Notes: a model not told the origin generated them from the sequence alone. Numbered from the stretch's first letter, positions 4,201-20,000 are shown. The stretch: 20,000 bases of DNA from Seison nebaliae (GCA_023231475.1 JALJEE010002345.1:53131-73130), one strand, 5' to 3'. Translations and numbers: made by a program.

Positions 4201-7200
4201 GTGAAAACGATCGTCCTTCGTAATCACATCCACATTCATTCTTCTTTATACATTGACGACGTTCATTACGAACAAAACCTTCTTTGCAAATACACGCTTC
4301 TCTCTTGCCCATATCCATCAAACTGCACGATTCCATACTGTCTTCTAAAGTAAAACAACTCTTCTCGCATCCTTCGATTAACGGAGAAAATTCTTCATTC
4401 TCATCACAGTCCATCGGACAATTAGCTTTCTCTCGCCAAACAATTGGTGCTTCCATTCCTTGTTTATAACATTCTTCAATTAACGACGCATAATAATGAC
4501 ATGCCAATTTTTTAATACGATTGTTCGGTCCTTTCGGATACAAGAAAGTGATGTCACTCTTCGCCTTAAATTTCGTCTCTTCCATCACCGTTTCATTCAA
4601 TACGCAATCACCAGTGTCAAAACCGATCATTTCAACTACTTCATCGATCAATTTATAATTTGCCTTTATCGTTTCATTACCGATGTTGGCATCGATTAAA
4701 TCTATTTTATCTTGACCAACAGGTCCACATCTATTCGGAGGAAACACATTTAATAGATCTTAACGAAAGAAAAAATTCTCCAACTTCTTTCCAATATTCG
4801 TATCATCATCCACCTCGTACTTGAATCCACCTAACCATTGCATGTCCCAATTCTCCATATACGGAATCACTTCATCCGTATCGGTATCCATTAGATCATC
4901 CGTCTTATTTCCTATCGATATAAAAAAAATGAGATATTTCAAAAAATGATAAGAAAACCGTTATAATTTCCACAAATACCACACATTTTATTTTGGAGAA
5001 TATTTGGTACGAAAATTTTGAATTCCGTATCAGGAATATAAGTTATCATCCATCCGCACACAGTATTAGCAATATGTCGATGTCTCTTTCGATAAGAGAT
5101 GATGACAGCGTTCGATGTTCCTTTGTATGGTAATTTGATGGTTCTTTCACTTCTCTTCTCTCCATTCACCTAAACAAATTTCAATTATTTAACAGATCTA
5201 AATTAAATAATAAACGAATAATTGATTCTTATAGAATCGAATTGTTATGTTATCGAATTTGACGTCGACCAATCTCGTCACTGTTCCTTCCAAATATTTC
5301 TCGTGAAAAACTCTGGTGACATCGTGAGTAGCTTTGTGTTCCACACGGAAATGACACGAATCCTAAATCCGACATGTCAACGGATGAAATTTTGGAAGAT
5401 TGATATTAACGGTTAAGTCACACACTTCAGCAGCGAGATATTTGCATTGTCCTTGAAAATGGAGGATATTATTATCGAAAGTTTTGTAATGAGGATCTCC
5501 TTCGATACGACAGAAAGCCGCACTCTGCTCCCATGCATTGTACAAGTCACGTTTCCGCAATTTACCTTCTCGATATAATTCCCAGATCTTCTTATGATTT
5601 CCAATTTCGAATAATCGATCCATCTCATCTCGAGACGATAAACAATTTTCCATTCCATCACCAATATAAGGAAGAACGCATTGACATGTATTGAAATCTA
5701 ATTTATCTGTGTCACATTGTGCAGATTCGTGACAGAATGAGTCTTTTTCTTCAACTTTTGAAAATTCAGTATTTTCTTGACATATCCATTTGCTGGCACA
5801 GTCGTCCTTATAAATGAAGGATCCGAACTGAAAGTTAGAAAATAAATGGTGAAATAATCATTAATTCAAAATATTCAAACTTTCACATTAACACCCGATT
5901 CCGTTTTACATCCACAAATTGATCGTGGTTCACATTTGTTGTTGTTCCACACATATCCTTCTTTACAGAAACAGATATTTTTCTCTGGTTTCTCACAATT
6001 CTTTCCCTCCATATCCTCACAAGTTTTCTGACAGGATTTCGTATAAGTCAATTCTTCATTCTCTTCACATTTCTTACCTGAAAGTATAAAATCAAATAAA
6101 TTTTCATGTTTCTCCTTCTTTGACAACTAACCGCAATATTCAGATGTGGTCCAATCGAAGTCCAGACCCAATTCCACTGAACAGATAGAATAGAGATATC
6201 TGGTGGTGAAGCAGAAGATATAATCCTTCAAGTTCATCTGTTTTTCTTGGAGAAAATCGTTCAATTCAACCGAATGTTTCTTGCAAACACCTAAACGGTC
6301 ATTCAAGAAATCCTCACGTTCAGGAATACTCTAAAGAATGTCATCACTTTAAAATTGTCTCTTAAAAGTTAACAGATAAGCAAGATCGGAATTGGCCTTC
6401 ATTTCTAGATAAGCCCAATGAATCCATAGCACAAAATGCGGAGACTTGTGTCACAAAATTTTGGTCATCTTCACTGCCGGTTTGAACGGATTTTATAGTG
6501 TTGTAACCATTCAAGATGTTCTCTTTCGAATCGAATTCGCATCTGTTCACATTGACATTGAATTAAGTAAAATATAAAATGAAAAAAAAAACTTTGTTCC
6601 AATATCAGTGTCATCTAATGAGAGATGTTGTACGGCACCGTTCCATTCTAATGTTAGTTCGGTAGGTTCTAATATCTTACCAGCCTCATCTCCATATACC
6701 AGTGCGAAATCATCAGTGGCATCACCATTTCCATTAGCACATAGACCACAAACATCAGCATGATCGGACGGTATGGTAACGGTGACAAATTCGTAATTCA
6801 TAATTGTTACCAATTTGCCACATTTGAGATCCTTGATAGTGATCACATTCTCCTTTGAAGAGACTTCGATTACACCTTGCTGCTTATAGGGCAAGTTGAC
6901 TTCCAAATTATTAATCTGTATATTTAGACAGATTAATTCGATTAATATATTTGAAATTTAACGGTCAATTCATCATTGGAATAAACGACAGATATTGCTT
7001 CAAATTTAGCAAGAACATAATACTCCAATTCGTTGTCGACCAATTGAACTTTCCGTTCAATACTGAAATCACATTTGTCCTTGAATAATTGAGAAATAAT
7101 TTGAAGAAGTGAGGGAAATCAAAAGGCAAAACTCCAATGGTGCACGACTTCGCCAAATAGAATTTACAAGGCAAATAATAATTGTAAATGGCTCCGTCGA

Positions 7201-7349
7201 ATGTCGTTACGTGATCCAACGAAGTTACCCTACAAGTTACTAAAGAACGAGAAGGATCATAAGAAGATGAGTTAAGACATAAAAAATAAACAGTCGTTTT
7301 CAGCTAGAACTGCACTAGCAGTTAGAAGTATTGCAAAAATAGGAAACAT
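1..7349 (-). CDS. Large secreted VWD/C8/TIL/EGF repeat protein with C-terminal SUEL (galactose/rhamnose-binding) lectin-like domains; zonadhesin/FCGBP-like; 3' end outside the window
   Basis: Manual splicing gives phase-consistent exons 7349-7292, 7239-7133, 7079-6963, 6915-6593, 6542-6374, 6330-6132, 6077-5881, 5827-5411, 5362-5216, 5169-4959, 4911-4785 and 4730-<1 (about 2,267 codons in the window). Signal peptide MFPIFAILLTASAVLA. VWD starts CRVTSLDHVTTFDG, CRIEGDPHYKTFD, CEVGDGLRVKTFNG and CRYENDRRVLTFDG; VWD ends VCGLCAN, MCGICGNYNG and VEGLCGN. TIL domains (CEENEE...CQKTC...CFCKEGYV) and EGF-like units are present. The last exon is open to position 1, so the ORF track misses it. Confidence 0.93.
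1358..1405 (-). repeat. 16-Thr coding tract (mucin-like linker) between the last EGF and the first SUEL domain
   Basis: 16 consecutive ACN codons in the open frame. Confidence 0.85.
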
Positions 7350-7400
7350 TTCTATTTCCAAAGAATATTTGCTTCTGCTGTCCAATTGTCGGGGAAGGTT

Positions 7401-7408
7401 CTTATATA
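7401..7408 (-). promoter_or_regulatory. Possible TATA box of the VWD gene
   Basis: TATATAAG on the minus strand, about 50 nt upstream of the ATG at 7349, in a locally GC-richer context. Confidence 0.35.
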
Positions 7409-9654
7409 TTCCAATTAGTTTTCAAGAAGCGTTCGAGTTCTCTTCTCAGCATCTGTTGGAGTTAGCGCCATCGACTCATCATGTCGGAGAAGTGATCGCT
7501 ACTTGAACTTCAACTCAATTAATTTAATTATTTTCTCTTTTACAATTTTTTCAATAGAATCATGTGGAATTGGTCAACTCTCCAAACTTACATTACATCG
7601 AAGGACATCCTATTAAAACTTGTCAAAGTAATTCTTTTTTCATCGTCTATCCATATGAAAAGCAATAGAAAGTCAATCTTATCTCGCCGAGTATGATTGG
7701 AGAAAATACTTTTCAGTGTTACAGAAATTGCTTATTAATATTTTTTATTATTGGAAATAAACGATATTTTTAATTAAATTTCCTATTTTTATTTACCGTC
7801 ACCGATGATGTTTATCCATTCGTAGGCGTAACAAATCAATAACTTCCTCCACTATCAATTTTGTCGTTGGAATAATATTAATATTTTTAACGACGAATAG
7901 TTTTTAATATTTCCATTAACCTCCCCACATTTACACTGCGCAAAGTTATCCATATAATCATTGTGGCTGTTTTAAAAATACCTAATAGACCAAATGTACT
8001 AAATAAGAGTTATTTTCAAAACAAAGAGAGCTACATTATTTAGAGGCTAAATGAGATCTATTTACCTACCATATTTACAATATTGTTAGTCCATCCATAT
8101 AGCTATTTTAAGCCTATAACTAAAGTTGTTTTTATACTCTATTTTCAACTTCAAAAAACAGATGTTTTAGCGACTAATTACAATTCATTCTTATACCTTA
8201 TTGAAGTGCTTCCAAATACATCGCTATAAAGGGCTAATTTAGATGATATTCTATATTATATCAATTAGTGCTAGAGAAGTCTATTAAGTTAGTTATTAAA
8301 TTTGTAATTATTCCTCTTTATCTAAAAATTATGTTTTATGATTTTATGATAATGAAATTAATTTTGTTTGTCAATAAAGATGATGTCAATTGTCAATAAA
8401 GATGGGATTTCGATCGAGACAAAGAAATATTACGATAATGATCAAAATACTTGCTTCGTGATTCGAATAATATAGATATCTGTACGTTAAATATATACTT
8501 AAAATAATGCAACACTAAAATCATTTAATTTTAAAATGCATTTGATTATTTCAATAGTGAGCAAAAACAAAAGAACACTTTTAGTATTTGACTGACAAGG
8601 AAAGTTTTCGATAAGAAAGAAATCAAAAATAGAAATAATAGGATATGTGAAAAATTCTGCTGATTGTAGATATGATAGAATTTTTATTTTTTTGCCTAAT
8701 AGTTAACATAGTTTATAAATTGGGATAAAACTCATAAATTACAAATCAATGTAATAATGATGATATATGCGATTCTTCTCTTACAAGTTAGTCTAGTGTT
8801 AGTTTTGGTTTAGTTTTATATAATCTTTATTATTTACATGCATTAGGGCTGTTTGTAATTTTGGTTCCTTCAAATTTTAAATGTTCAATTCCAGGAACAG
8901 AAATCGTAATGCCCTATGCGGAATACGCAACGGCTTTGTTTTCATGGACTATTTCATTCAACACATCATTCATATATTTCAACGACAAAATATTGTCGGT
9001 ACTGTGTCGCTCCTTTTTAACATCAATGGAAAAATTATAAACGCAAGCTGAATTTTTAAACTAAAGAAACTTGAATTTTCTTAAACAAAAATTTAGATTA
9101 TTCAATAAGCTTAAACATACTTAATTCAATTAGGTACTTATAGAGACCATCTGGGGCCCATTTGGACTGCACTTGATTGTAATGTTCTATATTATATCTA
9201 TAACGTTCTCTAAATTTTTATTAGATTTTTCATCTTTCTAAGTGGATCTTCCATTATAATAATAACGAAATAACTCTTATTGAGTTATTTCGTATTGAGT
9301 GCGTTTTTGTGTACTAAAGAAACTCTCATATCTGTCAGTACATATTTTTAAAGCAATTGAACTATTATTTATTTCTATCGAATAAATTTGACGAATATAA
9401 TATTTAATTAGAAAAAACTTTCATGGTCGTATGTGTCAGTCCTAGAAAGTTGAAATAAAACAGAAAAAGGACAATCGATCTCATTAAAGTTCTTTTAATT
9501 GACTTGATGTTGATTGTTAACCTTTTTTTATGATCCAGTTATTTTATGCGTTTATGCAGTATGATATGAAAAGATGTAGTTAAATTTAATGAGATTTCCC
9601 GATGCTATTTCTATTCATCATTCCATGGTACAATTTCAGATCAGAATATTGAAA

Positions 9655-11452
9655 ATGGTTCATCAAAAAACTTTCATAATAATAACTGTAATTTTATTGT
9701 ACTCAGAATTCTCATCAGTTCGTACTGACAGTGAGATTATAGATTTTTCGAAAAGTTTAATTTTTGTTAAGAAAAGTTATGAGTTGTTTAATTCAAACTA
9801 GAAGATTGGTATGAATTTGAAAAAAAAGTCATCAATTTCGAACAGGTTGAAGGTAAGACAGAGAACAAAGTAAAATGTGATGATAATCATTTCCGAATTA
9901 TGTTAGTATTTATGATCTAATTTTTCCAATTCTTAATTAGAGCACCTGTTTGGGGTGCTTCTCCCGTAGTATGCGGACAAGGACTTACTCCTAAAACATT
10001 GTTCTTTAACACCACACAGATTTATTGTTCAGGAGAAGGATGTCGGAGAAGACTCAAAGGGAGAATTAGAAAACCGATCAAATCGGAATTAAACACTGAA
10101 ATCAATATATGGAAATTGAAACGTATTCGAAATGATGAATATGAATTTCTCTGGGAAACGAATGGTTTCACTGATACGGTTATAGAAATCGATGACGATA
10201 TCCTGAATCAATTTCAAATAGTGAACGTTATAAATAAATATCATGAATGTAATGTTAATTTGACAAATCCTCTTACTCTTCCCAGAGAATGTAAAGAAGT
10301 CAAATTTGTAGTAGAAAGTTAGGAAGATTAATAAGTTTTCTTATTTTAAATTTTTGAAGAATCATCACCGAAACATTATAATGCTGCCGGTTATTTTTAT
10401 ATCAATAAAAATTAATCACTTCAACAATGAGGAAATTATACAGATTTAAAAATGAATAAATGGTCTTGCTCAAACTGCAAAGTCACATTCACCAATTTCC
10501 ATATTCGCGATTTTAGTTTAAGTAAATTTTTATTTGTATATTGGTGTAAAGATTATTATGTAAAATTAAGGTTAGTTCAATAGGAATGAAACTTATAATA
10601 ATTCAAATATGTTTTATTAATCTTCAGTTCTTTTCATCAGAATAGACAATATGAAGGACCACGTCTTTGTACGGACAAAGTGAAACCAGTAACGATAAAC
10701 GGTGACAATGTTACGATTAAAATGTCAAAGAACTTTTCCATTGATATGACTTGGATAATGGAATATTGTTTATTTATTTTGTATAGAAAAATTTAACTTG
10801 TTTGAAAAAAGATACAATTAAAGATGATTGGGAAGCTATTTACGATTTTAATGTCACTGATATCGATTTATTCGGCATCGATAATCGTTTCAATTTTGGA
10901 TCGTCCCCAGAAATAAACACTATTTACGTCCCTCCCAGTTTGAGTAAACGTATTTCACTTTTCGTGACGAATAATAATTGCGAATTGGAATATTCTGAGA
11001 TTGCTACCAAAGACCAATCAGATAACGGTACTCTGATAACGCCGGATGTGAAATGCGGAAATGAAATGGAAATTTATATTTACATGTTAACTCTGAAAAT
11101 TTCTTAACCGTTAAAATCTTTTTTTTTCAATAGGTTACCAAAATTCGATGAAGAATCATCAATAACAATTGAAAGAATGGCAAATGCTACAAATGCTACG
11201 ATAACTGAAAAGACCTACAATTCTACTAAAAATAAGATTGAACAGAAGTTGTTTAATTTTAAATTTTCGATACTGAAAAATTTATAATTTTTCTAATATA
11301 GTAATTTTGGAGGTAATTTTACAACAAACAAACCGTCCGTTCGATCCGAATCGATATCAACAAATGTCTTTAAATTAAATAATAAAACGTCTCAAATGTT
11401 GTTGACGTTGAAACTTCTTCTACAATTCAATCTGACAAATTCAAACGAATAA
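9655..11452 (+). CDS. Secreted protein with two divergent CUB-like modules (paralog A)
   Basis: Phase-consistent exons 9655-9754, 9802-9901, 9941-10317, 10360-10389, 10444-10570, 10628-10767, 10812-11085, 11134-11247 and 11302-11452. Hydrophobic N-terminus MVHQKTFIIITVILLYSEFSSVRT. CUB-like cores KCDDNHFRI...VCGQGLTP and WCKDYYVKL...LCTDKVKPVTINGDNVTI. Clear similarity to the gene starting at 17621. Confidence 0.75.
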
Positions 11453-11675
11453 AAATTATCAATAAATTAATCATAATCATTTTGATTTTAGATAGAATTT
11501 AAACTGCTTTTCTTTTATGCATAATTTTATATTTATCTGCTAAATTAAATTTTCTTAATGTTCTTTCCAATAATTTAATTTATAATAATAATACAATAAT
11601 ATATAATAATAATAAATTGAGATATCATTAGAAAAACATTTCCACATGAAAATATATTCAAATAAAATATGTAAT

Positions 11676-12568
11676 TCATCGTTCAGATCTCTCTTGTAGT
11701 AGTCGTCCAATTTCTTTCATTTTCAACTTGTCTAATTCTTCCAAATGTTCCGTGTCAATTAATTCCATTTTTGCACGATTCTCTATCAAAAGTGCACACA
11801 TATCAACATTGCCGATTTGAACTGCCATTAATCTGGAAATTGATTACGAAATAAAAGTTGACAATTAATTGGAATGTAACAATGGAGTCTTCTTTTCATT
11901 ATCTTCCTTGTTAATGGAATCGATTAGAAGTTTCCTCACTCTTAACATACGTAAAACTTGTTCCGTCAATTCTAAATTATCCAACATAACACAACGATGT
12001 ATAAGATTATATCCATAATTGTCAACCACATCAACAGAGACATTCTTCAACAATAACATGTCAATAATCTGTTAAGATTATGTGAAGATGATTTTCGGGA
12101 GAAAAGAAGAAAAACATTTTTCTGATTTTTTGAAATAGCATAGACTATAGCTGATCGTCCATTCTTCTCACAAATGTTCACATCAATATTCGATCTCTTC
12201 AATAATTCTTCAACAATTTTTGGACGAGCAGCTGACACTGCGATCATCAAGGCGGACCAACCTTGCTATTCAGATGGAAATCATTGGAAAATGATGAAAA
12301 AGAAAAATTGAACTTCATCAACTCGATTGATGTCGAGAGTGAGAGGATTGTTTAAAATAAATTTTATTAAATCCAAATGACCACCACTACATGCCCAATG
12401 TAAAATAGTACGACCTGTCTATTTTGATGGAAAGTTAATTTATTGAAAAACGGTTAAATTAACGATATCAATTACTTCCAATTCTTTCGAACGATTTTCT
12501 TTCAAATATTTCTCGATCATCTCAAGTTTACCTTCATATGCTAAATTGCACACAGCGATATCACTCAT
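11676..12568 (-). CDS. PSMD10: Gankyrin / 26S proteasome assembly chaperone (ankyrin repeats), 234 aa
   Basis: Exons 12568-12464, 12418-12314, 12265-12116, 12068-11881 and 11832-11676. The N-terminus VCNLAYEGKL and the repeats RTILHWACSGGH and GWSALMIAVSAAR match gankyrin (VCNLAYSGKL, RTALHWACSAGH, GWSPLHIAASAGR). Confidence 0.88.
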
Positions 12569-12639
12569 ATTGATAGATATTAATAATTATTCTGTCGATG
12601 AAATAATTCCGTTTAATTATTGAAAACGGTAATAATCAA

Positions 12640-13497
12640 TTAGAATTTGCGAATAACATGAAATGAATAAAAATGATGATTCAATTGAGGAATGAGATGA
12701 ATTTGATGAGAATTGGTTGAATGGAATGATGGGAAATGTATAGCACCATTTGAATGTGAATTGAAAAAGAATAAATGTTCAATTCTACAATGAATTAACA
12801 TCATTCCACACATCATACATGGCTCGTCACTCACATAAACATCACATGAAGTGCAAAGATGACCATTAAATAAAGTTCGGTTACGTTTACAACATTCTCC
12901 CATCCATCTCTTGATTGGATGATCGATTTGTGCGAAATGATTAACAGAATTATTCCTCAATTTCATACAACAATTTTTTCTTTCATTCCTTTCGAATAAG
13001 ATCTCTTCATTTGTCTTTTTGTCCATCACCAATAAAACGTTGTCTTTAGGAAATTTCATTAATTTCATAAGATTCCTTTCAATTTCTATCAGACGTTCTG
13101 ATGAAAAATAACTATTATTTAATATTTGATTAAAATCATTATTCTGATAATTGATTTTACTTCTTATCGGCCATAACATTCGAGCTCGTTCTTCTTGCAT
13201 TTGTGTGAAGATGTCAGCAGGATTAGGAATTGATCGTTGAACGATCGAAATAATCTTCGAAGAAATAACATCAGGAATATCACATTTTCCCATTCCTATC
13301 AATAAAAGGATATGTCCGACTTGTGTTTTATTGATTCTTTGTAATCCTTGTGGAATGGAAAATTGTTTGTTCTTTTGTAAATATTGAATGATATTATTCA
13401 GTTCTTTCGTGTCTACTACTTCACCAACTCTTCCCACCAATCTTCCAACATCTCCAACATATTTACGAGGAATAATTGGAATTAATTCAAATCTCAT
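12640..13497 (-). CDS. ADAT3: tRNA adenosine-34 deaminase non-catalytic subunit (ADAT3/Tad3), single exon, 285 aa
   Basis: The C-terminal signature LCTSCDVYVSDEPCMMCGMMLIHCRI...NGAI...IHLIPQLNHHFYSF matches the ADAT3 pattern YLCTG.D.Y...EPC.MC.M.L.H.RI...GA...H....LNH.F. IDHPI has a hydrophobic residue where active deaminases have the HAE Glu. Confidence 0.88.
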   Translation of the reverse strand: MRFELIPIIPRKYVGDVGRLVGRVGEVVDTKELNNIIQYLQKNKQFSIPQGLQRINKTQVGHILLLIGMGKCDIPDVISSKIISIVQRSIPNPADIFTQMQEERARMLWPIRSKINYQNNDFNQILNNSYFSSERLIEIERNLMKLMKFPKDNVLLVMDKKTNEEILFERNERKNCCMKLRNNSVNHFAQIDHPIKRWMGECCKRNRTLFNGHLCTSCDVYVSDEPCMMCGMMLIHCRIEHLFFFNSHSNGAIHFPSFHSTNSHQIHLIPQLNHHFYSFHVIRKF

Positions 13498-14337
13498 ATT
13501 TTCAAAATAATTCGATATGCTTAAAATTATAAGTAGAAGTATTTTTTAAATGATTGACATTCGATAAAATTAGAAAATATTTGAAAGATAATTATTTTAT
13601 TAGCTTACCAATACCTTTCTCACAATTAGCCTAACAGTGAAAGACCACACAAAACTTGGACGTTCATCAAACATCAATTAATTTTTATCCTTTAAAATAT
13701 CCAATCATAAATCGAGATATGAATCCTTATACATAAATTAAGTTATGAAAGCGAATATAATATAATATAAAGAAAGTAACGTTTATTCTCAAAAGTAGAT
13801 GGAACAAGATATTAAAAAATTTGAAAGAAAAATTAATTTGAAAAAATGATTATTCATATCATTATTATATATATTATCATCATAAAATGATTAGTTTTCG
13901 GCGGGTTGAAAAATGGAGGAAATTCGGTTTGAATGGAAATTCAATCAATCTAGATGATGGCAATGACGGTTTTAAATTGAAAATGATTATAAGAAGTCTT
14001 TTAAAGATATACATATGTATGAGAATCATATGAGAAATAATATAAGAGAGAATAAGATTTGGAATCATTACGATTCCATTAAAATGGTAAAAATATAATT
14101 TTTCGATTTAGAATTGTAGAAAAATTGGTGAAGCAACATTTATTTTGCTTCACTCGTTAGTAAATGGATATCTCGGATTTTCTACCATTCGATGATATGG
14201 TATATGAATTTTTGAAAAATCCAAATTATTCATTCCATCAAATAAGTGGCATAATTTTTTATTTAAATTTATTCTGAATTTCCAATATTTTTTGTATTTT
14301 CAATTCACTTTTCAGTTGGACTTCAAATAATAGATTA

Positions 14338-15640
14338 TTAACAATTTTCGTTCGTTTCCATATCGTTCCTTAGTCTCTTGATTGCAGGCTCACTTTCACC
14401 CATACTTTGTCTTTTCCTTTCTTCATAAGGACCTACCAAAGAAAAACATCCTCTATTTCTTAAGAGTGCTGTTCGACTTCGAGTAAGTATTCCTTTTCGA
14501 ACTGGTAACGAATATCGACTTCTTGTTCGTTTCGCTATTGGAGTGAATTCTTCAATACGATGATTCTGAGATGGATTTGATGGGACAACATCTTCCTCAT
14601 CTGATGACAAAATAATTGATTCTCCTGTAATTGGTAATGTAACAAGAGTGGAAGTGGCAGAATATGATGTGGGCGATCTTGGTGAAACGAGATGTGAATC
14701 TTCCCCACAAGTGGGCGAAGTTGGTGAAACGAGATGTGAATCTTCCCCAGAAGTGGGCGAAGTTGGTGAAATGAGATTTGAATCTTCCCCAGAAGTGGGC
14801 GAAGTTGGTGAAACGAGATCTGAATCTTCACCAGAAGTGGGCGAAGTTGGTGAAACGAGATGTGAATCTACACCAGAAGTGGGCGAAGTTGGTGAAACGA
14901 GATGTGAAATTTCACCACAAGTGAGTGAAGTTGGTGGAACGATATTTGAATCTTCACTACAACTGGACGATACTGATATTAATCGATTTCGATTATTTGG
15001 TATGTTTCTTGAAGATCGTCGAAGTGTAGTTTGTTCATTCTCCGACACATTGGTAGATGATCGACTTCTGGTGGTGATTCTCTCTCTTACTATATCGGTA
15101 GGACGTAAATTGAATATAATATTTCTATCCAATTGATCCTCGGCACTGGGAGAGTCACAATTTATACAAAACCATAAAATTTCTTCATTACCGTTTAAAC
15201 TTAATCCACTACAAACTAAATGTACTTTTAAATCACAGAATGCACATGATAGAATTTCATCGTCATCATTCATTGAACACTCGCAAATATAGCAGACATT
15301 TATAGATGCGTTTTCATCGAACGTCCCAGAATGAACATTAACCTGAAGAAGAAGAATTTGGAGATTCGGATTAAAAAAGAATAATAAACAGATTTCAAAT
15401 ATATCCTCTCCTCCATATCATAAACTTTCAATTGAGTCATCACAAGTCTATCCAACGGACATGTATTCGCCACCTTTAAATCGATTGAGAATATGATAAA
15501 TCAACGAAGATATAAACTTTCGACCATTTGGACAAACAGGACAAACAAAAGACATGACGACATTCATTCGGCATTGCTACATATCGTGGAATTTCGGTAA
15601 CACAAATCGGACACTTCTCTTCGCCTGTTAACTCGTCCAT
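14338..15640 (-). CDS. RING (C3HC4) plus PHD finger protein, PHRF1/Asr1-like, about 403 aa, with a Ser/Pro/Thr repeat region
   Basis: Exons 15640-15518, 15473-15390 and 15342-14338. The RING CPIC...PNECRHVFCLSCLSKWSK|VANTCPLDR resembles PHRF1 (PENCAHYFCLDCIVEWSKNANSCPVDR). It is followed by a PHD finger CYIC...ILSCAFCDLKVHLVC...WFCINC. Confidence 0.85.
14666..14956 (-). repeat. 42-bp coding tandem repeat, about 7 copies, consensus EDSHLVSPTSPTSG
   Basis: The plus-strand unit gaagtgggcgaagttggtgaaacgagatgtgaatcttcccca recurs with 42-nt period and is in frame with the RING-PHD CDS. Confidence 0.95.
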
Positions 15641-16242
15641 TTGTGATCTCTGTGTAAGGAATGAGGAAGGGAAACAGGAGAAGCTTAAGAGAAAATGCTC
15701 ACGTGAAATACTAAACTAAAAATTCGAATTTGAAACTTTAACTCGAAAAATTCAAGTCAAAATGAAAATCTAATTCTTTCTATTTCAAGTTCGCACTTTT
15801 AAATATTATTTTTTATTTATAATTTTTTAAATGGTTTTTAAGTCTGTTAAAAGCAGACTCATATTTCTTGGCAGTTTAAAAGAAGAATTTGAGTCAATTA
15901 GAATAAAAGATGGAAAATTGAAAGACAATATAATTTATAATTTAATTTGTGAATTATAATTTAATCGATAATGTGAGTTCATATTGTGAAATAAATTCAT
16001 ATGAATTTATAATCATATTTAATGACATTTTTAACACTTTTAGATCTCATTTTGGCTAAAATTATGAAGATTCCGATCATCAAAAATTAAAAAAAAAATA
16101 TATATTCTAGGTATTTAAATTTTAAGCTTTAAATAATTCATAATCGTTGTCAAATATTATGTCAAAGACAATATTTATAACGCTTTGACATTTCGGAAAA
16201 CGGATTTGTTATATCGATTAATTATATCTCAACATTCTCAAA

Positions 16243-17102
16243 ATGTACAAATTAATCTACGGTTTCTGGTCGTATTTGACGGAGAAGAGGAATTATTACA
16301 TTCTAATCCTAGGATTGGATAGAGCGGGAAAGACAGTTAATTTCATTTCGACTTGTCTTCCATCCTAGAAAATTAATTGATAGACATATTTAGAACAAAC
16401 GAGAATGAAATTCGATCGTTGTTACAAGAAGCAAAATCTCAATAAAATTACGAGTACAGTTGGTTGTAACAGTTAGTAAATGAATTTAATATGTGAAACA
16501 ATTAATTCGATTAGTTGGCAGTATTGACATGAAGGAAGTACGTTTGAATTTTTGGGATTTGGGTGGAGAAGAAGAACTGCAAAGTTTATGGGATCAAGTT
16601 TTTTCCCTCAACTCATATTCATAACTCCATTCGAAGTATTATGCTGAATGTGACGGAATAATTTATTTAGTTGATTCGAGCGATAACGAAAGACTCGAAC
16701 AATCGTGGCAGACATTCGGTTATTAATTTGTATAAAAATATTCTAAAAAAATTATTTTTTAGATAATTTATTATCATCTCATCATATTGATGGGAAAGCA
16801 GTTTGTATCGCTTGTAATAAACAGGATATCGAGGTTCCTCACAAACTTGAAGAAATAACTTCAATTTAATTAATCACAGAACTGTATGACAGTTGGCGAT
16901 ATACGGAAAGTATTCAATAAATCTGATGAGAAAATTGGCGTACGCGATTTCATCATAACGGCCTGTAGCGCATTAACTGGGTTTATTTACTCTATCACAT
17001 ATCTTTTAATTCAATCATTTTAGTGATGGAATTGGTGAAGGAATTGATTTCATTCACAATTGTGTGAGTCGAATGAAAGTTCGAGATAAAGTGGACGAAT
17101 AA
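16243..17102 (+). CDS. ARFRP1: ADP-ribosylation factor-related protein 1 (Arf-family GTPase), 198 aa
   Basis: Exons 16243-16335, 16384-16471, 16515-16597, 16637-16718, 16763-16833, 16880-16980 and 17024-17102. MYKLIYGFWSY N-terminus (no Gly2), ILILGLDRAGKTTYLEQ, KITSTVGCNIG, FWDLGGEEELQSLWDQYYAEC, NKQD and CSALTG align collinearly with ARFRP1. Confidence 0.95.
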
Positions 17103-17620
17103 TCAGAAACATTCTTGTACATGAAATTCAAATTGGAGAAATTCTTCATAAATCTCTTCAGAAAGTTTAAAAATAAAAAAAAGTTTTAGGAAACTCTTTT
17201 CGGAATAACATTGAACAATTGTAATGTAAATAAACAAGTATTTTTGGGAATTCATCCAAGAAATATTCGAGTTTCTTATTTTCGGAACGATAAAATTAAT
17301 TTTAAATGTAATTGAATGATTTAAAGGATTTTTTTTAAATAAACAATTTCTTCTCACAAAATATTCCTTTATTTCTTTTCATGAAAATGAGGTAAGGTGA
17401 GTTATTTATGTCTGTTAAACTAACACGAGAGGAGAAATGTTACAACTGAAAATAAACATGGAATTCTTCTTCTGATTTATCTGTGATAAGAGTCAGTGTT
17501 ATATCACTTCATATTAGTCAGACCTGTTCAGTTATTCTTATTCTACTGCATAACTTGGTAAATAATAAATTTATTTTAAATGTAAACACGACATAATTTC
17601 TTTTAGAAGGAAATTTACAT

Positions 17621-20000
17621 ATGATGATCAAGAACGATTTTATCAAGAGACTCACCCTCTGTTTCATTATCCTTCAATTGGCTATAGTAAAATCGGATGA
17701 TATCAATTTTGATGAAGATGGAAGTTTTCTTTTAAATCACATTTGCAAATGATTATCATTAGTATATGAATATGTATTCGAGAAAACTATGATTGTTTTT
17801 GGTGATGTGGATGGTGACATAACTATTCCTCAGGATTTTGAAATTAAGTGTGACGATGATTATTATCAAATAGAGTTTATTCTTTGTTTTTTAGCTCGAA
17901 ATATGTAACATGTCTTTAAATTCCAATTTTAGAATAACCAACAACCAAATAACAAAACAATATTTTAGATTATGTGGACAAGGATTATATCCAGAAAGAA
18001 TATATGCTGATAAAATTGTTATAAATTTTACTGGAGATAAATGGAAAGGAAAGTTTAATGCCACATCAATTGCTGGTAGTGCATATGCTCAAGCGAAAAG
18101 TGAATGGACGTTCAAACGTATTAGTGATGGAAGATATAACTTTCTGTGGACACAAACAATTTCAGTGTCACCTAAAGAAATTACTATAAAGAAAGATGAG
18201 AACTTGATCGGAAAATATACTACGAAAAATTTAGGTACTAATAGCCAATGTGAAATAAACCAAAATGATAACACAATAATAATCATTTCTTCTAATTGCA
18301 CCGGAATCAAATTCTCTATACAAGGTTAGAAATAACGACCGAAAGAAAATCATATTTTTCTGAAAAGAATTGAACGTTCCCACTCAAAAAATACCTGGGG
18401 TAACTACAAGTTCGATGATATCGCAAACTGGTGAAGAAACAACTTCAACGATTACAACAAGTACTTTGACGCCAGTCATCATTACATCGCAAACGTTAGA
18501 TCCTCATATAAATTATTTATTAGAAATTTAAGTGAATTTAAGTAAACATAGTAATATCTAGATCATGGATGTCAAATCGGAAGAAACAAAGAGAAAAAAC
18601 CAGTTTTCAGCTTCCTCTGCGTTATAGAGATCCTCTAATGTCAAAACTACAGAATTACATGATTTGTCTCTTCGTTCCTCCCAACTTCACATCCATGATC
18701 TAGAAAGTACTTTAAGGTGTTCATTTGATTGAACTGGAAATTAGAAATGAAATTTTTATAGATAAAGATATTCTATTTCTTATTAATTAAACTTTTTATT
18801 TTTTTAGAACTGTTATACAATTCGGTCCGGGAACGTATACTCAAGAAGGTTCTCCATCATTATATTTATAATAATTTTGTTATTAATGCGGAAAACATCT
18901 TTTTAGATTTAAGTGGATTAATTTGGAGATGTGTAAAATGCGAAATCACATTTAACGCTTTCACACACAACTCCACAACTCAGCTAGAGGAAAATGAAGA
19001 CATTGTGTGTAATGAAAAATATATTCAAATTACGTTAATAATTATTATAATGCATAAAGTTAGTTTAAAATAACTTAATTGAAAAAACAGATCAAAGAAA
19101 GGAGAAGAATCATACAAAGGTTTCCACGTTTGTTCGAATCTAATTAAACCGGTAAAATTCAATGGTGATTCAATCGAAATCCGTTTAAGTCAGCAGTTTG
19201 ATATTGAAATGGAATGGACTTCTATTGGTTTGTAACGTTTAGAATAAATTATTTGTCGAATATTTATTAGCTGCAGAATCTCCTATTTCAAGTTGGACAG
19301 CGGAATATAAAATCGATTCGTTGGCAACACCAGGGTCTACCTCAAACTACAATTTCTTCTCATCTTCTAAGATCGTCCAAATTAATGTAGACTCCTTTTT
19401 GTCTACTTCATTGAGTTTAGAACCTACAGGAGATTGTGGAATATCAAAATATTTGAATGGTGATGGTGTATTAAATGATCATTTCGACAATTTAAAGTTC
19501 TCAAAAGAATGTGATGATGAGGATGTTTCAATTTATATGTTTTAGCTTTTAATTTTAAACTGTAAGAAAACTGATAATAAAACTTTTTAAACAGTAAAAT
19601 ATTGAACATAGTAAGTACAACACCAAAAACAACAATGACGACAACAACGACGACAACGACGACAACAACAACAACAACAACAACAACAACGACAACAACG
19701 ACAACGACAACAACGACAACAACGACAACAACTACAACAACGACAACAACTACAACTACTACAACAACAACAACTACTACGACAACGACAACTACTACAA
19801 CAACAACTACGACTACAACTACTACTACAACAACGACAACTACGACAACTACAACTACAACTACAACAACCACAACGACTACTACAACTTCGACAACTTC
19901 TACAACAATAACTACGACAACTACAACAACTTCAACTACAGCTTCAATTACAACAACAACTACCAAAACAACTACAGCAAAATTAATGTTCTATGTGGTT
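17621..20000 (+). CDS. Secreted mucin-like protein with two CUB-like modules and a poly-Thr stalk (paralog B); 3' end outside the window
   Basis: Phase-consistent exons 17621-17723, 17763-17874, 17933-18324, 18368-18494, 18808-18848, 18907-19033, 19091-19227, 19271-19538 and 19595->19987. Signal peptide RLTLCFIILQLAIVKS. Cores KCDDDYYQI...LCGQGLYP and VCNEKYIQI...VCSNLIKPVKFNGDSIEI. Confidence 0.75.
18564..18697. mobile_element. 134-bp MITE, hAT-Charlie/Buster-like, intronic
   Basis: Termini CATGGATGTCAAA...TTCACATCCATG, with an imperfect inverted repeat extending about 36 bp. Flanking 8-mers ATCTAGAT (18556-18563) and ATCTAGAA (18698-18705) match at 7/8 positions and fit the NTCTAGAN target consensus of Charlie-type hATs. 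Confidence 0.7.
19617..19976 (+). repeat. Thr-rich (ACN)n coding tract; 84 consecutive Thr codons at 19638-19889
   Basis: All codons are ACA/ACG/ACT/ACC, with variation confined to the third position. The tract is in frame with the spliced paralog B CDS. Confidence 0.9.

Follow-up and report, generated by a model that had tools for sequence, protein, structure and literature searches.

Which letters mark the start of an intron in the seisonid rotifer Seison nebaliae, and which part of its splicing machinery reads them, are the questions raised by a 20,000-nt stretch of its genome (GCA_023231475.1, JALJEE010002345.1:53131-73130; hereafter the window, to which all coordinates refer). S. nebaliae, a tiny marine rotifer, has a compact genome (about 46 Mb, about 32% GC; PMC8351084). 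The introns modelled in the window are spread over six genes of five families: 11 in a gene for a VWD-domain protein, 8 each in two paralogous genes (paralogs A and B), 4 in a PSMD10-like ankyrin gene, 2 in a RING-PHD gene and 6 in ARFRP1. All 39 begin with GTT, and none begins with GTA or GTG. Judging from these gene models, the splicing machinery of this animal has likely switched one letter of its intron-start code.

The third base of the introns

The initial annotation had listed the 39 introns as GTT starters, and the same was found at every one of them when their coordinates were re-checked. All 39 have GT...AG termini, a feature of major (U2-type) introns, and their removal restores an open, homologous frame; the spliced frames of the six models have no internal stop. 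The introns are short, 38 of them having lengths of 39–58 nt (median 47) and the remaining one 313 nt. Minor (U12-type) introns were considered and rejected. The U12-type donor is the rigid RTATCCTT; the Seison donors have T at +3, are free at +4 to +8 and comprise 21 different hexamers.

Composition alone was rejected as the cause of the pattern. The background frequency of T after GT ranges from 39% in the whole window to 49% in intron interiors, predicting at most about 49% GTT, so that 39/39 is not compositional; at a rate of 0.5 the chance of such a result is p ~2e-12, or p ~2e-4 for the 12 introns which the initial annotation had regarded as constrained. The GTT start, which had been called invariant, is so inside the window (39/39), and beyond it the GTT share has a 95% lower bound of 0.93 (n = 39) or 0.90 (29 independent positions); invariance is thus demonstrated locally only. 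As far as gene models can tell, the uniform GUU start, with almost no other consensus, is a real and strong feature of these intron-rich animal genes.

Support for the splice junctions

Introns were called with a Viterbi gene finder that left the +3 base unscored and used GT, AG, a loose prior on intron length and a coding model for which three long exons served as the training set. The prior was centred on the PSMD10-like introns; a prior-free version misplaced one of the four PSMD10 junctions and several VWD junctions. The finder called 45 introns in the six genes, 42 of them with GTT, and all 39 annotated donors were among these calls, which bears out the earlier assertion that the pattern exceeds the annotator's own selection. 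Six calls, of which three were GTT and three non-GTT, were discarded in curation: i) those at 6900 (GTC) and 18118 (GTA) would cut residues aligned to the sister VWD repeat and to the paralog, respectively, ii) those at 18603 and 18717 lie inside a repeat within the 313-nt intron of paralog B or on the border of that repeat, and iii) those at 9579 and 9658 lie before or within the likely signal-peptide start of paralog A. With gene starts fixed, 37/39 donors were recovered unchanged, and 36, 34 and 36 when +3 was set in silico to A, G and C, respectively; this similar recovery indicates that the finder has no preference for GTT. Banning GTT lowered the score of every gene, by 7 to 71 log units.

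Twenty-nine of the 39 positions are fixed by homology or by an NCBI model (4 PSMD10-like, 5 ARFRP1, 14 paralog and 6 VWD-repeat introns), and the other 10 were placed by frame, coding score and domain continuity. The 234-aa NCBI protein SNEBB_006431 of S. nebaliae, the single match to an ankyrin exon of the PSMD10-like gene, is the product of that gene; it can be rebuilt exactly from 12568-11676 (minus strand) by excising four introns, at each of which the sole possible GT-AG placement starts with GTT. This gene model is itself a prediction. Four ARFRP1 exons cover residues 1–115 of vertebrate ARFRP1 without a gap, and the fifth junction is an anchored position. At 23% identity, paralogs A and B have seven intron pairs of equal phase no more than two alignment columns apart, all GTT, and two VWD repeats of 28% identity have three intron pairs, again all GTT. 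In addition, long contigs of the DNA-like run X1 covering 16200-19590 are the same as the window at all 14 donors; since X1 is possibly the window's own source, this agreement excludes consensus error only. Five of the seven sequencing runs listed contain the window, none of them recorded as RNA; within 16200-19590, runs X6 and X7 yielded no contig, and spliced joints were absent.

That the pattern is artificial, produced by model selection, gene prediction or errors of assembly, might be suspected from the six curated calls, half of them non-GTT, from the predicted nature of the NCBI PSMD10-like model and from the modelling of the junctions in general. Selection was rejected as the cause on the grounds of the donor-blind calls and of the control with substituted +3 bases, and the gapless tiling of the ARFRP1 exons, the paired intron positions and the X1 contigs at 14 donors also argue against an artefact, which we consider highly improbable.

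Low-depth diverged contigs (approximately 84–96% alike) of runs X1 and X5 were also found at 16240-16349, 17030-17100 and 17450-17680, possibly representing a second lineage; two strains of S. nebaliae have been described (PMC8351084). These contigs reach 16344-16349 and 17878, just beyond two donors, and among the differences listed none falls at these donors, but their ends are imprecise and they were not counted as support. At 18070-18085, within an exon of paralog B, both DNA-like runs depart from the window by seven letters with full depth, which may reflect a local assembly error or a haplotype.

Homologous intron positions in other organisms

Among 80 metagenome ARFRP1 loci, 44 have a donor at one or more of the four positions in common with Seison; the other 36, which are intronless, partial or have introns at other positions, were excluded. 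The 57 distinct outgroup donors thus obtained comprise 39 GTA, 17 GTG, 1 GTC and no GTT, and 48 of them have G at +5. In contrast, Seison has GTT at all four common positions, and a purine at +3 is found in 0/39 of its introns vs 56/57 of the homologous ARFRP1 donors elsewhere (GTT in 39/39 vs 0/57; Fisher p=8e-28). Because the outgroup loci are often mutually related and none was identified as rotifer, the contrast is established, but not the timing of the switch. Since the ancestral ARFRP1 positions are retained and yet are all GTT, the donors appear to have changed in place. This contrast, together with the retention of GTT in seven paralog pairs at 23% identity, lends good support to the proposal of an altered donor code made in the initial annotation. 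Three loci (L029, L030 and L031) contain compact ARFRP1 genes with short introns at positions not common with Seison, which are GTA-type by eye.

Other signals of the introns

Beyond GTT the donors are diverse, the 21 distinct hexamers including GTTTGT once (1/39) and GTTAAG never. A re-count confirmed G at +5 in 10/39 donors, vs 3.3 expected (p=0.0013), and GTTAG occurs in 7/39 (p=1.4e-4); T occurs at +6 and at +7 in 23/39 each, vs 17 expected (p=0.04 each). A and T (17 each) are at background level at +4, and G at +6 is unenriched (2/39 vs 3.3 expected). The statement that +4 to +6 vary freely therefore holds for +4 and is slightly overstated in view of the enrichment of +5 G and GTTAG. On the exon side, A at -1 occurs in 14 cases vs 13.3 expected, and A or C at -2 in 31/39, where 19.4 would be expected (p=1e-4; one of 20 tests, post hoc).

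Donors of human and other species fall into the classes AG//GU and //GUNAG (PMC11732430). When +3 is ignored, 9/39 Seison donors fit one of these classes and 30/39 fit neither. Seison resembles the corresponding animal and plant classes AG//GUNNN and NN//GURAG (PMC11732430) in its GU-AG ends, residual +5 G and weak -2 A, but has AG|GU in 4/39 and GURAG in 0/39 donors. As -1 G is unenriched and +5 G is weak, most of the donors lie outside both known animal classes.

It had been suggested that donors are defined by GUU plus intron length. These two features are insufficient, since 112/163 exonic GTTs have an AG 39–58 nt downstream and hence meet both, so that further signals are needed. The median A/T content is 0.78 in true introns vs 0.63 in the best decoys, and true introns are G-poor, with interiors of 42% T and 35% A. 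A branch-like motif, WTRAY, lies 8–32 nt from the intron end in 28/38 introns vs 17.1 in shuffled sequences (best of five patterns), and acceptor position -3 is C/T in 33/39 and A in 6/39. Depletion in coding sequence affects both GTT (213 vs 236) and GTA (161 vs 187), but not GTRAG (17 vs 20); avoidance of exonic donors had no discriminating value.

Two canonical-type sites lie in exons and are unused in the models: AAG|GTAAGA in paralog A, with the GTAAGA at 9853..9858 (plus strand), downstream of which the stretch aligns with the paralog B protein, and GTAAGA at 6077 (minus strand), which opens the exon after VWD intron 6 and forms a canonical-looking AG|GTAAG. The spacer that separates ARFRP1 from paralog B contains, at 17392-17402 (plus strand), a tandem of AG|GTAAGG and AG|GTGAGT to which no exon could be attached and which may be due to chance.

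How the third base may be read

Intron position +3 faces the U at position 6 of U1 AUACUUACCUG (PMC4856993) and next faces G44 of U6, where purines pair weakly (PMC11732430). Our preferred explanation, held tentatively and at a little less than even confidence, is that GUU has replaced GUR as the standard intron start in S. nebaliae, most likely via a predicted change of U1 from ACUUAC to ACUAAC. The predicted U1 base facing +3 would have changed from U to A, and the donor checkpoint would be a three-pair core, with G+1, U+2 and U+3 paired to C8, A7 and A6 of U1. The chemistry would remain that of the ordinary major spliceosome with GU...AG ends, intron definition would operate across the very short introns, and exonic GUU sites would be rejected through intron composition and the branch and 3' signals. 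As GTA arises easily in A/T-rich DNA and yet is absent, selection against GTA by a changed machinery is suggested. The U1 change is ranked first because Entamoeba, which also has +3 U, has a matching U1 and because the residual signal, GUUAG, is in the canonical register; the excess of +5 G, +6 T and GTTAG fits a GUUAGU optimum in that register, with +6 G unenriched. In its widest form, the proposal is that the spliceosome of an intron-rich animal has been recoded throughout the genome, so that it demands GUU and ignores canonical GUAAG, through a change in a core small nuclear RNA (snRNA), either at the 5' end of U1 or in the ACAGAGA box of U6, with ancestral positions kept and essentially every donor rewritten at +3; we consider this an even call.

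Several points weigh against a changed U1. The evidence base is one 20-kb window with modelled junctions, and a scan of the window with Rfam detected no snRNA, U1 included, at the gathering score or at E<=1. G at exon position -1, which C9 of U1 should favour, is unenriched (10 vs 8.1 expected, phase-matched, p=0.28), and the residual +5 G and +6 U may come from U6 alone. Pairing was not significantly better in the true donors than in 221 GTT decoys, p being 0.11 with ACUAAC, 0.13 with the standard U1 and 0.37 with a U1 matching the shift. The excess of position matches over chance is about as large in the shifted register (116 vs 98, p=0.014) as in the canonical one (112 vs 92, p=0.007). The donors of Fritillaria borealis have changed with the U1 5' end unaltered (10.1101/2025.08.15.670264). 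As for the GTT rule itself, both paralogs have an acceptor-like AG 14–15 nt ahead of the start codon, at 9639 and 17606, which by its position suggests a common intron in the 5' untranslated region (UTR). The candidate donors upstream of the two starts (9559-9639 and 17526-17606, plus strand) are both GTT and GTA, and the foremost candidate for an exception is a 49-nt GTAAAT...TTTAG at 17558-17606.

Such candidate 5'-UTR introns, with GTA as well as GTT donors, would be expected if the machinery were standard and GTT were a strong bias arising in a compact genome from U-rich introns and relaxed selection, perhaps common to other rotifers, with a substantial GTA/GTG minority elsewhere in the genome. 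The restriction of the evidence to one window and the 42% T of intron interiors are in keeping with this explanation. However, composition gives at most about 49% GTT, vs the lower bound of 0.90–0.93 derived from 39/39, and zero GTA donors were left after curation in spite of 35% A in the introns; we regard a mere bias as improbable.

A species-wide +3 U rule could also be enforced after U1, at docking to the U6 ACAGAGA box, with U1 remaining standard. U+3 would then form a wobble with G44 or face a G44-to-A variant, and contacts of METTL16, SNRNP27K, U1C or Prp8 may have been lost or changed. The weak pairing of purines with G44 (PMC11732430) is consistent with such a rule, as is the finding that GUUUGU permits more pairing with U6 ACAGA (10.1101/2022.06.08.495308), and Fritillaria is a precedent for altered donors in an animal with an unaltered U1 5' end. 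A single invariant base among the relaxed U1-paired positions -1, +4 and +5 resembles a geometric check, the background level of A (17) and T (17) at +4 would be expected if the m6A43 preference were lost, and only 9/39 donors fit the relaxed human classes AG|GU or GUNAG. On the other hand, the ACAGAGA motif is reported to be essential and perfectly conserved (PMC5855946), and since A+3 is tolerated in other animals, whose G44 is unchanged, G44 alone does not forbid GTA. This explanation appears unlikely to us, though it carries appreciable weight.

Roca and Krainer reportedly described, in 2009, a shifted (+1) register of U1 at atypical human donors. If U1 read the Seison donors one base shifted, U+3 would stand for the usual U+2 and G+1 for the exon -1 G, and GUU would be invariant since catalysis still needs G+1 and U+2; U1 would be standard or have A at position 8. 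This would account for the lost -1 G, and the excess of A/C at -2 (31/39 vs 19.4, p=1e-4, post hoc) would be the M of MAG displaced by one position; T at +7 shows a mild excess (23 vs 17), and the shifted register does occur in human introns (PMC4856993). It predicts, however, G at +6 and A at -1, which were found at 2/39 (3.3 expected) and 14 vs 13.3, respectively. Moreover, no donor is GTTAAG, and the enriched G sits at +5. Seison also resembles the shifted-register human donors (PMC4856993) in its GUU start, lack of -1 G and A/C at -2, but such donors are rare in humans, whereas GUU starts every Seison intron, and their defining +6 G is unenriched here. A shifted register is, in our view, likewise improbable.

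Relation to other altered donor codes

The predicted change of U1 has its nearest counterpart in Entamoeba, the one published lineage with +3 U found in our literature search. Its donors are GUUUGU(U), with the full hexamer GUUUGU in 88–90%, its genes are intron-poor, and its U1 has co-evolved to ACAAAC; most donor changes affecting +4 only retain the standard U1 (10.1101/2022.06.08.495308). Seison and Entamoeba have in common a dominant +3 U (39/39 in Seison) and major-type GU...AG introns. They differ in that Entamoeba is intron-poor with a fixed hexamer, whereas Seison has 21 hexamers, a free +4 and GTTTGT in 1/39, and in that Seison is an animal with intron-rich genes and ancestral animal intron positions, in which the U1 change is predicted only. 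Fritillaria borealis, with non-canonical introns that have lost GT/AG ends and with unchanged U1 5' ends (10.1101/2025.08.15.670264), is likewise an animal with a large-scale change in donor identity, but Seison has kept GT-AG and tightened it to GTT.

Searches of the literature on Seison, rotifers and atypical donors found no report of a GTT bias, with the limits that subscription journals were thinly covered and that pan-eukaryote intron surveys might tabulate the species. In the S. nebaliae genome paper (PMC8351084), the main text contains the word 'intron' twice and 'snRNA' never, and 'intron', 'splice' and 'snRNA' are absent from two supplements. A lamin study reported alternative splicing in Seison, the parts examined showing no donor sequences (PMC10125929). 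All-GUU donors in an intron-rich animal have thus apparently been unreported so far. Transformed donor codes are found mostly in intron-poor protists and fungi, and it is debated whether they originate through loss of ill-fitting introns or through intron-spliceosome co-evolution (10.1101/2022.06.08.495308). Seison would offer a natural test of whether the +3 preference is set by U1 position 6 or by U6 G44. Models of splice sites that have been trained on other animals would score its genome wrongly.

Intron positions and neighbouring genes

The VWD gene extends on the minus strand from 7349 to beyond position 1 and encodes a VWD/TIL/SUEL-lectin protein of more than 2260 aa; one of its exons is at least 4.7 kb long, for which a sequence search gave no relative. 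Its introns, all called by the finder, are intron 1 at 7240..7291 (GTTTAT, 52 nt), intron 2 at 7080..7132 (GTTTTG, 53 nt, phase 0), intron 3 at 6916..6962 (GTTAAA, 47 nt, phase 0), intron 4 at 6543..6592 (GTTTTT, 50 nt, phase 2), intron 5 at 6331..6373 (GTTAAC, 43 nt), intron 6 at 6078..6131 (GTTAGT, 54 nt), intron 7 at 5828..5880 (GTTTGA, 53 nt), intron 8 at 5363..5410 (GTTAAT, 48 nt, phase 0), intron 9 at 5170..5215 (GTTTAT, 46 nt, phase 0), intron 10 at 4912..4958 (GTTTTC, 47 nt) and intron 11 at 4731..4784 (GTTGGA, 54 nt, phase 2). Introns 8, 9 and 11 pair with introns 2, 3 and 4, respectively, in the sister VWD repeat.

Paralogs A (9655-11452) and B (17621 to beyond 19640), both on the plus strand, encode likely secreted proteins with seven introns in common; neither has a convincing Pfam, sequence or Atlas match, the Atlas matches all being below 0.8, and a protein search with a paralog B exon gave zero matches. 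The finder placed the introns of paralog A at 9755..9801 (GTTTAA, 47 nt, phase 1), 9902..9940 (GTTAGT, 39 nt, phase 2), 10318..10359 (GTTAGG, 42 nt, phase 1), 10390..10443 (GTTATT, 54 nt, phase 1), 10571..10627 (GTTAGT, 57 nt, phase 2), 10768..10811 (GTTTAT, 44 nt, phase 1) and 11086..11133 (GTTAAC, 48 nt, phase 2), which pair in this order with the paralog B introns starting at 17724, 17875, 18325, 18849, 19034, 19228 and 19539. Its eighth intron, at 11248..11301 (GTTGTT, 54 nt), has an alternative donor 3 nt further on which is also GTT.

The PSMD10-like gene has its introns, on the minus strand, at 12419..12463 (intron 1, GTTAAT, 45 nt), 12266..12313 (intron 2, GTTCAA, 48 nt), 12069..12115 (intron 3, GTTTTT, 47 nt) and 11833..11880 (intron 4, GTTACA, 48 nt), all from SNEBB_006431. 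Next to it, 12640-13497 (minus strand) is an intronless gene for a 285-aa protein of the cytidine/adenosine deaminase family, with an exact NCBI protein match and weak Pfam matches, which by resemblance is ADAT3-like. In the RING-PHD gene, also on the minus strand, intron 1 (15474..15517, GTTTAT, 44 nt) and intron 2 (15343..15389, GTTTAT, 47 nt) were placed by the finder and by domain continuity; about six tandem 39-nt units at 14680-14930 in this gene encode a Ser/Pro/Thr-rich repeat.

The ARFRP1 introns, on the plus strand, are intron 1 at 16336..16383 (GTTAAT, 48 nt), whose position is common to other organisms, intron 2 at 16472..16514 (GTTAGT, 43 nt), where a nearby GTAAAT alternative would remove an invariant Gly, intron 3 at 16598..16636 (GTTTTT, 39 nt), intron 4 at 16719..16762 (GTTATT, 44 nt) and intron 5 at 16834..16879 (GTTCCT, 46 nt), all placed by homology, and intron 6 at 16981..17023 (GTTTAT, 43 nt), placed by frame and the coding model only.

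In paralog B, whose C-terminal portion is a long Thr-rich mucin-like tail, the finder placed introns at 17724..17762 (GTTTTC, 39 nt), 17875..17932 (GTTTAT, 58 nt), 18325..18367 (GTTAGA, 43 nt), 18849..18906 (GTTCTC, 58 nt), 19034..19090 (GTTAAT, 57 nt), 19228..19270 (GTTTGT, 43 nt) and 19539..19594 (GTTTTA, 56 nt), numbered 1 to 3 and 5 to 8 and each paired with one of paralog A. Intron 4 (18495..18807, GTTAGA) is enlarged to 313 nt by an insertion at about 18550-18711 resembling a miniature inverted-repeat transposable element, which has 49-nt inverted arms, 82% complementary with a perfect outer core, and about 60 times the single-copy depth.

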